Below are positions 1,054 through 48,687 of a DNA stretch of 64,000 nucleotides, one piece after another (the stretch's first letter is position 1; each line of letters begins with the position of its first letter). Both the position numbers and the translations under genes were made by a program. This DNA comes from Ruminococcus bicirculans (ex Wegman et al. 2014) (lineage in GTDB: Bacteria > Bacillota > Clostridia > Oscillospirales > Oscillospiraceae), in NCBI GenBank assembly GCA_963649145.1, contig CAVJGI010000002.1, positions 4,105-68,104 on the forward strand. The letters are read 5' to 3'. The notes under the pieces were generated by a model that had not been told where the DNA came from, searched no databases, and worked only from the letters and a program-made list of their open reading frames with translations.

Positions 1054-1082
1054 TTGCAAATCCAAAAGATGCGTGATATAAT
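1054..1082 (+). promoter_or_regulatory. sigma-A-type promoter for the lipoprotein gene
   Basis: TTGCAA, 17-nt spacer, TATAAT. An AAAGGAGG RBS sits 8 nt before the ATG at 1110. Confidence 0.7.
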
Positions 1083-1109
1083 GCCACTATCAAAAAGGAG
1101 GTAAATAGA

Positions 1110-2054
1110 ATGAAGAAAACACTTTGTCTGATCCTCGCACTCACTATGATATTTTCCCTTGCTGGATGCGGTAAAAGCGAAAAAACACCCGATGTTAAAC
1201 AAAGTAACATTATCGAGCCGTATCTGGATGAAGAAGGAAACTTCGTTAGCAGCCTCTCTAAATTCGTTGTCGAACCGGATAAGTATTTTCCGAAGAGCAC
1301 GGTTGAAACGAACTCAGAAGATGACGGCTCTCGCATTATGGTTTACGTTGAGTTCTGTACTCAGGAAGAGATTGATGCGTATGCCGCTGATGCTAAAGGC
1401 GATAGATTCGTCAAGCTGTCATATTCAGGAGACGATGGAAAAGGCTGGAATGATGCTGAGGGCTGGTATTCCTTTGCCGTTGCTACTGAGGACAGTGGCG
1501 ATGATGAACAGCCTTTGAATGCGCTGTTTATCTACTGCATCAATAGCGATTTCGCGTATGATTTGAGACATCCTAAGGTTGAGGAGTCGCCCGTCCCTAC
1601 TGTTGAACCGACTCCGGAGCCTACGCCCGAACCTGTAGAAGAAAAAGATATTCGGTGGGATGTGATCAGGGAGCACGTAAAGATGCTTTCAATCACTGGT
1701 CCTGTTTATACAGACGAAGAGTCCGTTCGGATAATTGATTATATGAGCGAAAATTCTTTTGGAAGCGATGATGGAACTGAAATTCGCGAGCTTCTTGATG
1801 AGGATCCTGCACTTTATGTAGCAGTTTTTACTTTTACGCTTTCTTCATTACTTAAAGAAGAAAATGTCGTTTCAGATAAGGATTTTGCTTCGGCAGCGAA
1901 AGCGCTCCAGTTTCTTTTCACGTTCTACTATTACGATTACGATAATGAAAATTTAAATACCTCACTTACAAACGACGAGCTTGAATTACTCGAAACTATT
2001 TACCAAAACAGCGAGATCTTAGACGTTCTTCCCGAAATCCTTTCTGATAAATAA
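1110..2054 (+). CDS. hypothetical lipoprotein encoded in a low-GC insert
   Basis: Signal peptide with lipobox (MKKTLCLILALTMIFSLAGCG) and a strong RBS. It has an EPTPEPTPEP linker. GC is visibly about 40% against about 68% in the flanks. No family was recognised. Confidence 0.75.
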   Translation: MKKTLCLILALTMIFSLAGCGKSEKTPDVKQSNIIEPYLDEEGNFVSSLSKFVVEPDKYFPKSTVETNSEDDGSRIMVYVEFCTQEEIDAYAADAKGDRFVKLSYSGDDGKGWNDAEGWYSFAVATEDSGDDEQPLNALFIYCINSDFAYDLRHPKVEESPVPTVEPTPEPTPEPVEEKDIRWDVIREHVKMLSITGPVYTDEESVRIIDYMSENSFGSDDGTEIRELLDEDPALYVAVFTFTLSSLLKEENVVSDKDFASAAKALQFLFTFYYYDYDNENLNTSLTNDELELLETIYQNSEILDVLPEILSDK

Positions 2055-46414: not shown

Positions 46415-47446
46415 ATGCTCTTTTTTGAGAGAGACATCGCAATCGACCTTGGAACGACCAACACGCTGGTCTATGTCCGCGGAAAGGGCGTCGCCATGCG
46501 CGAGCCGACCATCGTCGCCGTGGACAAGACGACCGGGAAGCTGCTGAAGATCGGCGAGGAGGCGCAGAAGATGCTGGGGCGCACCCCGGCGAACATCGTC
46601 GCCATCCACCCGATCGCGAACGGCGTCATTTCCGACTACGACATGACCACCCGCATGCTTCAGGAGCTGCTGAGCCGCGTCACGAGCTTCAGCTTTTTCA
46701 AGCCGCGCGTGATCGTCTGCGTGCCGAGCAGCATCACCGGCGTGGAGGAGCGCGCCATCATCGACGCGACAATCGAAGCCGGTGCGCGAAAGGTCTACCT
46801 GCTGGAGACCGCCGTCGCAACGAGCACCGGCGCGGGAATCGACATCTCCAAGCCGGAGGGCCATCTCGTCATCGACATCGGCGGCGGCACGACGGAGGTC
46901 GCCGTGGTCTCCCTCGGCGGCGTGGTGGAGGTCGAGTCCATCAAGACCGCGGGCGACGAGTTCGACGAGGCGATCGTCCGGTACATACGCCGGAAGCACA
47001 ACGTCCTCATCGGCGCGCGCACCGCGGAGGAGCTCAAGCGCGCCATCGGCTGCGTCTATACCCGGCGCGAGGTCGAGACCCGTGAGGTCAAGGGCCGCTG
47101 CCTGCTGACCGGTCTGCCCAAGGCGGTCACGGTCAACTCCAACGACATGATCGAGGCGCTCGCCGAGCCGGTCGAAAAGGTGCTGGAGACCATCCACATG
47201 GTTTTGGAGCGCACCCCGCCGGAGCTCGTGGCGGACATCTCCGTCAACGGCATCGTCATGTCCGGCGGCGGCAGCCTTCTCTGGGGGCTCGACAAGCTCA
47301 TCACGAGCCGCACCGGGATCGAAGCCGTCGTAGTGGACGACACCCTCGCCTGTGCCGCCTACGGAGCCGGAAAAATGCTCCGCGAGCTGAACAACATGCA
47401 GGAGGGCATGATCAACCTCGCGAGAAGAAAGCAGATGAAAGGGTAA
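46415..47446 (+). CDS. mreB: rod-shape-determining protein MreB
   Basis: IAIDLGTTNTLVY, VIDIGGGTTEVAV and MSGGGSLL actin-fold motifs. Confidence 0.95.
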   Translation: MLFFERDIAIDLGTTNTLVYVRGKGVAMREPTIVAVDKTTGKLLKIGEEAQKMLGRTPANIVAIHPIANGVISDYDMTTRMLQELLSRVTSFSFFKPRVIVCVPSSITGVEERAIIDATIEAGARKVYLLETAVATSTGAGIDISKPEGHLVIDIGGGTTEVAVVSLGGVVEVESIKTAGDEFDEAIVRYIRRKHNVLIGARTAEELKRAIGCVYTRREVETREVKGRCLLTGLPKAVTVNSNDMIEALAEPVEKVLETIHMVLERTPPELVADISVNGIVMSGGGSLLWGLDKLITSRTGIEAVVVDDTLACAAYGAGKMLRELNNMQEGMINLARRKQMKG

Positions 47447-47448
47447 AA

Positions 47449-47478
47449 AAACCGGCTCCCGAACGGGAGCCGGTTTTT
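47449..47478. repeat. 30-bp terminator hairpin, left copy (AAACCGGCTCCCGAACGGGAGCCGGTTTTT)
   Basis: Exact copy of 47712..47741 in direct orientation. The asymmetric GAAC loop fixes the orientation. Confidence 0.9.
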
Positions 47479-47711
47479 CAGCCTGTCAAAAAAAGTCCAA
47501 ACAACGCGGCGAAGCCGCACAATTTAAAGGCCTCCCTGTGTAAGGGAGGCTGTCAGCCGAAGGCTGACTGGAGGGTTGTAAGCTTCTGAAATTGCCAAGC
47601 TTGGCGTTTTCGGAAGCTTGGTAACAACCCCTCAGTCGCGCTTCGCGCGCCAGCTCCCCTTGCACAGGGGAGCCTTTAAAATCGCAGATCGCGGAGTTCT
47701 TTGACAGGCTG
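47479..47711. mobile_element. 233-bp non-coding fold-back element with 12-bp perfect terminal inverted repeats (MITE-like)
   Basis: CAGCCTGTCAAA at 47479-47490 and TTTGACAGGCTG at 47700-47711. The two arms are colinear imperfect inverted copies around the central CCAAGCTTGG. There is no ORF, and the element is flanked by the 30-bp duplication. Confidence 0.6.
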
Positions 47712-47741
47712 AAACCGGCTCCCGAACGGGAGCCGGTTTTT
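47712..47741. repeat. 30-bp terminator hairpin, right copy
   Basis: Identical to 47449..47478. It also serves as the terminator for the minus-strand hydrolase gene. Confidence 0.9.
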
Positions 47742-47748
47742 GCTTGAT

Positions 47749-48687
47749 TCACATCTTGCTCTCCAGCCAGCGGAGGACGTCGTTATAGACCTCATTGCGG
47801 CAGAGCTCGTTCAGAATTTCGTGCCGTCCGCCGGGGTAGAGCTTCAGGGAGACGTCCGTCATGCCGGCGCGGAGGAAGTTCTCATACGCGCGGCGGACGC
47901 CCTTGCCGCTCTCGCCGACGGGGTCGGCATCGCCCGCAATGAAGAGCACCGGCAGCTCGCGGCGCATCAGGCGGACATTATCCAGCTTCGAGATCATCTG
48001 GATGCCGCCCATCATGTCGTGGAACAGCCCCACCGTCGGGACGAAGCCGCAGAGCGGGTCGGCGTTGTAGCGGTCGACATGCGCCTCGTCGCGCGTCAGC
48101 CAGTCGTTCGGCGTGCGCGCGGGCTGGAACGCCTTGTTGTAGCCGCCGAAGGCGAGATTATTGAGCTTATCGCTGTGGTAGCGCGGACCGTGCTTTTTGA
48201 TCTCCAGTGCGCTCGCGAGCTTGCCGCCCGCGACGACGGCGGCGGGCTGCTGCCCGGTGCCGCAGATGACCGCGCCGGAAAGCCCCTCGGACCAGCGCAG
48301 CAGGTAAGTGCGGGTCAGGAAGCTGCCCATGCTGTGACCGAAGAGAAAATACGGCAGCTCCGGGAACTCCGCGTGCGTGAGCTGATAGAGCCGGTGCATA
48401 TCACCGACGGCGGTCATCCAGCCGTTTTCGTCGGCAAAATGACCAAGCTCGCCGTCGGCGCTGACGCTCTGACCGTGGCCCAGATGGTCGTTTGCTACGA
48501 CGAGGAAGCCGTTTTCGGCGAGGTACGCCGCGAACTCGTCGTAGCGCTCCACGTGCTCGGCAATGCCGTGCGCGATCTGCAAAACGGCGCGGGGCGCGGT
48601 GTCCGGCGTGCAGCGGCGGACGTGGATCTGGGTCACGCCGTCGCCGGAGGGGAAGGTGTAGTCGGAAAAAACGGGCATGGGGTTCAT
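47749..48687 (-). CDS. alpha/beta hydrolase (lysophospholipase / monoacylglycerol-lipase-like)
   Basis: HGIAEH, nucleophile elbow GHSMGS, and the C-terminal GGRHEILNE His motif. Confidence 0.85.
   Translation of the reverse strand: MNPMPVFSDYTFPSGDGVTQIHVRRCTPDTAPRAVLQIAHGIAEHVERYDEFAAYLAENGFLVVANDHLGHGQSVSADGELGHFADENGWMTAVGDMHRLYQLTHAEFPELPYFLFGHSMGSFLTRTYLLRWSEGLSGAVICGTGQQPAAVVAGGKLASALEIKKHGPRYHSDKLNNLAFGGYNKAFQPARTPNDWLTRDEAHVDRYNADPLCGFVPTVGLFHDMMGGIQMISKLDNVRLMRRELPVLFIAGDADPVGESGKGVRRAYENFLRAGMTDVSLKLYPGGRHEILNELCRNEVYNDVLRWLESKM

Follow-up and report, generated by a model that had tools for sequence, protein, structure and literature searches.

How does a complete transcription terminator come to stand on both sides of a short segment of non-coding DNA? 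The question is posed by a locus of Ruminococcus bicirculans (ex Wegman et al. 2014), located in a stretch of 64,000 nucleotides (assembly GCA_963649145.1, contig CAVJGI010000002.1, positions 4,105 to 68,104 of the forward strand) which is termed the window here and to which all coordinates without a locus number refer; other loci are cited by L numbers. Between the convergent genes for MreB and an alpha/beta hydrolase, a 233-bp element with terminal inverted repeats (47479–47711, plus strand) is bordered on either side by the same hairpin. Before insertion, the site contained a single bidirectional terminator, and the whole stem-loop is now found on both sides of the element. [quoted passage not shown] A preliminary description of the window had suggested mobility for this fold-back element with its terminal inverted repeats, placed it in a shared terminator duplicated over 30 bp, and raised the possibility of selection for structure, a view that is supported by copies at other loci, by empty sites, and by covariation of the internal hairpins across copies.

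The Duplicated Terminator

The repeat, AAACCGGCTCCCGAACGGGAGCCGGTTTTT, occurs in direct orientation at 47449–47478 and 47712–47741 without a mismatch over its 30 nt, and three matches to it at three or fewer mismatches did not occur in any of 100 dinucleotide-shuffled versions of the window. Because the hairpin is palindromic, its direct rather than inverted orientation can be told from two bases of the loop only, which reads GAAC and not GTTC. The full palindrome of the left copy spans 47447–47478. A G+C-rich 10-bp stem with a run of A on one side and a run of T on the other suggests a bidirectional intrinsic terminator common to mreB (46415–47446, plus strand; Pfam MreB_Mbl, E = 1.3e-125) on the left and the lysophospholipase-like hydrolase gene (47749–48687, minus strand; Pfam Hydrolase_4, E = 3.7e-50) on the right. 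The duplicated hairpin was not called by a simple terminator scanner, probably by reason of its loop rule.

An Empty Site in Related Strains

Related loci were reached via homologues of the hydrolase, which carry the source name lysophospholipase, and via the MreB protein, which is encoded in identical form in many related assemblies; an exact look-up of the hydrolase protein of the window returned no record. One locus, L082 (GCA_963650585.1, contig CAVJMQ010000018.1), matches the window at 100% identity across 7,032 bp and contains the element. In L084–L091, whose flanks are 91–96% identical, one terminator and nothing else lies between the stop codons of mreB and the hydrolase gene, and the same empty site, with one terminator and no element, is present in L075, where the hydrolase is 97% identical. 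Single-terminator sites at the same position in close relatives, which the preliminary description had suggested as a check, are therefore at hand. L091 lies on a contig of the metagenome-assembled genome (MAG) richest in copies of the element, i.e., the family is present in this genome while the mreB site is unoccupied. The site reads TAA, five A, CCGGCTCCCGAACGGGAGCCGG, six T, and GCTT, which is the window minus the element and one copy of the repeat and corresponds to the sequence expected before insertion. The comparison of empty and occupied alleles traces the 30-bp repeat to the target and shows that the element arrived with it. The insertion at the mreB–hydrolase site is recent and polymorphic.

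Among L084–L091 and L075, the loop of the shared terminator differs (GAAC, GTTC, GAAT, GTTT; one stem variant) on a constant stem, which indicates that inversion or mutation of the loop is frequent in this palindrome.

A Multi-Copy Family

A 24-nt pattern, TTTAAAGGCNNCCCTGTGNAAGGG, was built from the positions identical between both arms of the element and scanned over a collection of species-representative genomes, where it matched at least 73 stretches. Among the matches listed, 52 reside in GCA_963605115.1 (contig prefix CAVCTM01, labelled Pseudobutyrivibrio sp.), 16 in an uncultured Clostridia MAG (CALJDB01), and one each in five other Clostridia or Negativicutes MAGs; the two MAGs that account for most of the matches are related to each other. 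When the 73 listed loci were searched with the window element by nhmmer, at least about 97 non-overlapping copies were obtained, 82–92% identical to the window copy, so that the further copies whose existence had been left to be checked are plentiful. Low-stringency blastn detected no second copy within the 64-kb window. Many copies lie at contig ends, as expected of a repeat that breaks assemblies. The conserved core of 155–160 bp extends from TTTAAAGG to CCTTTAAA. Variation is greater in the outer hairpins and in the terminal repeat (consensus SAGNNTGTCAAARAA), which are absent from some old copies. The consensus repeat is nevertheless present at many copy ends; copies differ by insertions and deletions, and tandem copies occur at L006:7049–7442. 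A metagenome scan for full-length copies with terminal repeats returned a single locus, L078. Scans of viral contigs for the core and for both element ends yielded no match, a plasmid collection gave one match at chance level, and a phage collection contained only solo arm-like modules of about 50 nt, in unannotated gut virome contigs (L079–L081). The family belongs to a group of high-G+C gut Clostridia. As is typical of MITEs, the element is shorter than about 500 bp and devoid of coding capacity, has terminal inverted repeats and target-derived direct repeats, and exists in dispersed, polymorphic copies.

Hairpin Duplications at Unrelated Loci

The preliminary description had considered a 30-bp duplication unusually long, yet this length is not peculiar to the window copy, given that 19–47 bp are repeated at other hairpins within the family. 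For 41 copies readable on both sides, the left flank was compared with the right one in search of the best direct alignment. Besides the exact 30-bp duplication of the window, this survey revealed duplications of 36 bp with one mismatch (L002), 47 bp extending beyond the hairpin (L001:4519), 29 bp between convergent symporter and chloride-channel genes (L028), 26 bp (L017), and 19 bp, resuming after an inverted loop (L030). The duplicated hairpins are all different, locus-specific, and unrelated in sequence; left and right flanks of unrelated copies, aligned as a control, score no higher than 14. An 8-bp duplication, CTTGTTGT, is found in L003 and L065, which represent the same site in two MAGs and a target that is not a hairpin.

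The relation between element ends and hairpins was assessed by an explicit stem search. Among 37 element ends with a terminal repeat, 22 adjoin a stem-loop of 9 bp or more at its foot, at a distance of no more than 1 nt in 21 of them, as compared to 4.6% of random positions in the same DNA (p about 2e-20). This test replaced a flush-hairpin statistic based on minimum free energy, which was discarded as too permissive since it accepted 26% of random positions. No fixed motif was found beside the junctions. Two copies (L006:137–371 and L063) are flanked by two different hairpins, the 3′ end being joined to the 5′ foot of a hairpin on each strand. Hairpin duplication recurs across the family and is tied to insertion at hairpin feet. 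In L030 and L001, the loops of the two duplicated hairpins are mutually inverted; since the loop also varies between strains at the mreB site, this flipping amounts to ordinary mutation and calls for no special explanation. In relatives of the L028 locus, only one terminator is present, but it is not the same one, and the synteny differs in part; this is supportive only and does not represent an exact empty site. Three independent short-read assemblies of a relative (L103, L104, L106) contain contigs ending at the same point, 255 bp after the chloride-channel gene, and this common end point suggests another repeat or an assembly breakpoint.

A Model for Insertion at Hairpin Feet

[quoted passage not shown] If both ends attack one palindrome, the joints would lie a palindrome length apart on opposite strands, and gap repair would copy the entire hairpin. 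Ends joined to two different neighboring hairpins would give no duplication, and ordinary duplex DNA would be attacked with a stagger of about 8 bp. The repeat in the window is made up of a 22-bp stem-loop plus AAA and TTTTT (22 + 8), and its agreement with a stem-loop plus the 8-bp stagger of the non-hairpin site is suggestive, albeit not proven. After insertion, mreB transcripts would end at the left copy and hydrolase transcripts at the right copy, and the element would not be read through. Since both genes would keep an intact terminator and the element would be transcriptionally insulated, insertion would be near neutral and elements would accumulate at terminators; the copying of terminators, by which neighboring genes stay properly terminated, may thus explain the piling up of elements at gene ends.

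Element Architecture and Covariation of Internal Hairpins

The element starts with the left terminal inverted repeat CAGCCTGTCAAA (47479–47490, plus strand; family consensus SAGNNTGTCAAARAA) and ends with its perfect reverse complement, which reads TTTGACAGGCTG on the plus strand (47700–47711, minus-strand orientation). The repeats agree in 12 of 12 nt, and CAGCCTGTCAAA and its reverse complement are the sole two matches in the window; extension of the repeat by one base (T...A) is possible and moves the boundary of the duplication by 1–2 nt. The outer hairpin H1, GCGGC-GAA-GCCGC (47506–47518, plus strand), as read from the sequence, is kept in many copies. It is followed by the A arm of the conserved core, TTTAAAGG ... 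TGGAGGGTTGT (47523–47579, plus strand; 73.9 bits with a covariance model), which includes hairpins H2 (47530–47550) and H3 with its GAA loop (47552–47568). An inverted repeat around CCAAGCTTGG (47580–47619) forms a central palindrome and the apex of the fold-back, and the B arm, TTTAAAGGCTCCCC ... TGAGGGGTTGT on the minus strand (47624–47680; 70.8 bits), includes H3 (about 47635–47651) and H2 (47653–47673). Each arm is arranged as TTTAAAGG, H2, H3, and then TG(G)AGGGGTTGT. The two core arms are inverted repeats, 75% complementary over 57 nt, and the whole arms are 72–80% alike. Upon folding, the two strands each form one long hairpin of −136 and −129 kcal/mol, respectively (z about −12 and −11 versus shuffles).

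With regard to expression signals, the outward-facing TTGACA that the preliminary description had pointed out in each terminal repeat is indeed present, but promoter prediction across 47200–48000 returned no sigma-70-like promoter, the TTGACA boxes included. Its statements on the sequence all hold. The element has no coding capacity; its sole open reading frame (ORF), a mechanical one of 88 aa (47486–47752, minus strand) without a Pfam match, extends across it. A permissive scan of 46900–48300 with Rfam 15 produced chance-level matches only and nothing at the gathering score; the best match was a plant miRNA precursor model with 29 bits versus a gathering score of 137. Neither search thus gave any indication of an RNA gene.

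The two arms are of distinct types, A being characterized by GGCCTCCC..GGGAGGC and TGGAGGG, and B by GGCTCCCC..GGGGAGC and TGAGGGG. This asymmetry is maintained across copies and genomes. The preliminary description had noted that the stems of the GAA-loop hairpins differ within the window copy while pairing is preserved, and had interpreted this as compensatory change under selection on structure. Covariation of H2 and H3 is indeed found between copies; the stem difference within the window copy, however, is family-wide and therefore ancestral rather than having arisen there. H3 occurs in 25 sequence variants in 104 arms, all of which fold, with stems including TCAGCC/GGCTGA, TCAGCGC/GCGCTGA, TCACGGC/GCCGTGA, TCGGCGC/GCGCCGA, CGCGGC/GCCGCG, and GCGC/GCGC. 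In an alignment of 150 arms (92 distinct) to a covariance model of one arm, 94.5% of the cells are paired versus 35–52% with partner columns slid, the alignment having been fitted to the structure. Changes on both sides were observed for 11 of the 17 pairs of H2 and H3, two of the covarying pairs merely mirroring the A and B types, and the observed covariation score was reached by 0 of 500 shuffles, a kind of test that is inflated by sequence kinship. Even with these reservations, six of the covarying pairs, with more than one independent pair type, fall within H3 alone.

Wobble pairs are nearly absent from the covarying stems, and the loops of H3 are of the type G-N-A closed by C-G, a DNA mini-hairpin motif of unusual stability. 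The G-N-A loops and the scarcity of wobble pairs, together with the lack of a predicted promoter, provide a hint, but only a hint, that the internal hairpins matter as DNA rather than as RNA. Transposition probably requires H2 and H3 as structural features of the DNA, which is the weakest part of the account.

Relation to Known Mobile Elements

IS1272, a member of the IS1182 family of insertion sequences (ISs), selects stem-loops of unrelated sequence by their structure and takes their place, in many cases immediately downstream of genes. In the model proposed for this element, an alternative pathway b predicts duplication of the hairpin (Wan et al. 2017, PMC5678879), and the window shows exactly this alternative outcome. 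Common to both systems are targets in the form of stem-loops, here probably recognized by shape and not by sequence, often downstream of genes (22 of 37 ends at a foot versus 4.6% here). Despite this likeness, IS1272 is a 1.9-kb autonomous element that deletes the stem-loop and generates no duplication, whereas the element described here is non-coding, 233 bp long, and associated with a duplicated hairpin. Descent from the IS1182 lineage cannot be claimed, no transposase of the IS1182 type and no matching terminal repeat having been found in the DNA covered. In ISfinder, direct repeats of the IS1182 family range from 0 to 60 bp.

The elements resemble bacterial MITEs such as Correia, ERIC, RUP, Chunjie, and MITEPye1 in that they are small, non-coding, multi-copy, and intergenic, with terminal inverted and flanking direct repeats (PMC10969869), and also in their long-hairpin fold and their many truncated or degenerate copies. 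In contrast to the fixed duplications of 2–9 bp described for MITEs, however, the length of the duplication follows the hairpin here and varies from 8 to at least 36 bp. MITEPye1, an IS1182-related MITE, has 4-bp repeats (PMC11578231), and duplication of terminators is not mentioned in a review of prokaryotic MITEs (PMC10969869). ISs targeting repetitive extragenic palindromic (REP) sequences (IS1397, ISKpn1, and ISPpu9/10; for ISPpu9, see PMC8450116) share the preference for extragenic palindromes as landing sites. The hairpins chosen by the present family differ in being unrelated, locus-specific terminators that are copied whole. REP-targeting ISs, on the other hand, recognize one repeated family of palindromes, within which they insert with short or no duplications. 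SPRITE, a pneumococcal repeat resembling rho-independent terminators, is likewise a small interspersed repeat with terminator-like hairpins; its hairpin is part of the repeat unit, while the flanking hairpin here is derived from the target and differs at each locus. Elements of the IS200/IS605 type lack terminal inverted repeats and duplications, have their subterminal hairpins on one strand, and insert 3′ of a short fixed motif, as opposed to the symmetric inverted ends and duplications seen here. Repeat duplication during spacer integration by Cas1–Cas2 and during casposon integration (PMC5137440) is comparable as an analogy only, with staggered attack on the two ends of a partly palindromic unit of about 30 bp and duplication by gap repair. 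Unlike in that system, a CRISPR array and a sequence-specific leader are lacking, as is cas1 in the DNA examined, and the insert is a defined element with terminal inverted repeats.

A literature search with the terminal-repeat sequence returned nothing relevant. The elements form a new family of MITE-like elements whose targeting, probably directed by shape, duplicates whole terminators, with a close precedent in the IS1182 family. Occupied and empty alleles, taken together with independent loci, point to targets chosen by DNA shape and to a duplication set by the length of the palindrome; in the literature found, this outcome, although predicted for IS1272, is not documented for a MITE. In practical terms, the family breaks MAG assemblies, many contigs ending inside copies, and duplicated terminators could mislead annotation pipelines. 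Should the transposase be found, it would offer a handle on the formation of cruciforms or hairpins at terminators in vivo.

Points Against the Proposed Mechanism and Alternative Explanations

Several observations weigh against transposition into hairpin feet. Clear duplication of a hairpin is seen in only 6 of the 41 copies with readable flanks, most copies being old and degenerate. Left junctions are less regular than right ones, the 47-bp duplication of L001 passes the hairpin by 20 nt and abuts a truncated left end, and L032 and L078 duplicate the 5′ half-stem only (9–13 nt). A transposase producing long staggers of variable length could, if sites that do no harm were selected in addition, give rise to part of the same pattern. 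The transposase gene bounded by the same terminal repeats that the preliminary description had envisaged did not come to light: the window, the fetched loci (about 540 kb), viral contigs, and plasmid and phage records yielded none with matching ends. Clustering of paralogues among 1489 ORFs from the loci yielded ABC transporters, two-component systems, molybdopterin oxidoreductases, and similar proteins, and no transposase. A screen for inverted repeats 0.9–3.2 kb apart that enclose an ORF brought up only two element copies around an ABC transporter in L026. Mobilization in trans and DDE chemistry are accordingly inferred. Finally, L083 (4035–4705), L092, L093, and L096 carry a gene for a 185-aa GNAT acetyltransferase between mreB and the hydrolase gene. 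In L083 and L096, it is located between two full copies of the terminator of the window; in L092 and L093, the mreB-side copy is reduced to its 3′ half. The GNAT insert of L083 measures 610 bp and lacks terminal inverted repeats, and no sign of mobility was seen for the gene, which has close homologues at the same locus and a distant one in an ordinary operon. Given the GNAT case, terminator duplication at the mreB locus is not exclusive to the element, and terminators in these genomes may be general insertion sites.

The GNAT alleles also permit a history in which two terminator copies existed beforehand, in an ancestor with the order mreB, terminator, GNAT, terminator, hydrolase (as in L083, L092, and L096), and the element replaced GNAT and inherited the repeat. 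The closest relatives by flank (L083, 96.7%, and L092) do contain GNAT between two copies of the hairpin, and IS1272-type elements are reported to replace stem-loop sequence. This course of events is nonetheless very unlikely, as it demands a precise swap leaving the terminal repeats flush with copies identical at 30 of 30 positions, while in L083 neither the loop nor the edges agree between the two copies. Moreover, L091 combines the window-type 3′ end of the hydrolase gene with a single terminator matching the pre-insertion site, and the order hairpin, element, hairpin recurs at unrelated loci with different hairpins. An immobile lineage-specific spacer, or a local tandem duplication of the terminator, would agree with the single copy in the 64-kb window, but is refuted by at least about 97 copies elsewhere and by precise presence or absence at the site, which leaves it with next to no probability.

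Other explanations concede that the family is dispersed and differ in what moves or maintains it. It is unlikely that the element is REP- or REPIN-like and owes its movement, as single-stranded DNA, to a RAYT-type (HUH, Y1) transposase instead of to DDE cut-and-paste. Like REPINs, it consists of two inverted hairpin modules forming a long hairpin and exists in many extragenic copies beside terminators; the very stable G-N-A loops closed by C-G, the covarying stems nearly without wobble pairs, and the solo arm-like modules in other genomes would also fit. REPINs, however, are without terminal inverted repeats or target duplications and possess a GTAG-type head and a linked RAYT gene. The present element, by contrast, shows terminal inverted repeats along with duplications of the target, either 8 bp or a whole hairpin long; it has no GTAG-type head, and neither the paralogue clusters nor the repeat-flanked ORFs of the fetched loci were seen to include a RAYT-like gene. 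There is similarly little likelihood that the family is kept mainly for a host function as RNA or DNA, e.g., as a 3′-end stabilizer, an additional terminator or insulator, or a site to which a protein binds, with mobility being secondary. The strong conservation of the 155–160-bp core with its covarying hairpins, the A/B asymmetry conserved across copies and genomes, the persistence of arm-like modules in more distant taxa, and the very stable fold are consistent with such a role. Yet an element between two terminators and with no predicted promoter is expected to be barely transcribed, it is dispensable at this site, which is empty in most strains of the species group, it matches no Rfam family, and template-switch repair can bring about compensatory changes in palindromes without selection. 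A further candidate is an integrase, be it an unrecognized transposase, a Cas1-like enzyme, or another structure-specific enzyme, that moves the family by gauging its target through the two hairpin feet, a possibility considered rather improbable. If it were true, any intrinsic terminator would be a potential landing pad that is copied in the reaction, and the same machinery could explain GNAT between terminator copies, with terminators taking up selfish as well as cargo DNA. The conserved G-N-A-loop modules, found as single units in other gut Clostridia as well, would then be units of protein recognition.

Variants, Associated Repeats, and Neighboring DNA

Long variants of the element (L026:113–435, L029:1200–1490, and L065:5527–5861) have an extra self-complementary apex module of about 110 bp, GTAGGGGACGGCGTCCTCGACG ... 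CGTCGAGGACGCCGCCCCCTAC. At L026:113–2945, the two inverted copies around the ABC-transporter gene, which share a 42-nt perfect inverted repeat, resemble a composite transposon. Another conserved hairpin, CCAAGGGGGTC(N4)GACCCCCTTGG, adjoins element copies at L017:260–290 and 560–590, L019 at about 290–320, and L026:460–490; these copies, which stem from different genomes, have an alternative outer segment, GTATTAGTTAAAACGCTGG, in common, and the hairpin may represent a second repeat family or the end of a subfamily. A solo arm-like module is located directly 3′ of the mreB stop codon at L092:2058–2238 (reverse complement), where GGCTCTCCCTCTGGGAGAGC is followed by TGTCAGCCGAAGGCTGAC and then by TGAGAGGGGCTG; similar single modules exist in L024, L040, and L057 and in the gut virome contigs L079–L081.

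The loci from GCA_963605115.1 (within L001–L073, and L091) consist of DNA with about 63% G+C, and the source-named hydrolase homologues come from Oscillospiraceae, Butyricicoccus, and Clostridia MAGs; the label Pseudobutyrivibrio sp. of this assembly looks doubtful. In the window itself, the neighborhood is made up of housekeeping genes, namely uvrA, recD2, a comF-like gene, the IMPDH gene, and pur genes. A 325-aa ORF at 1077–2051 (plus strand), to which Pfam gave no match, has a third-position G+C of 0.41 versus about 0.85 in neighboring genes, and with the surrounding G+C falling to 0.56, it may be foreign DNA.

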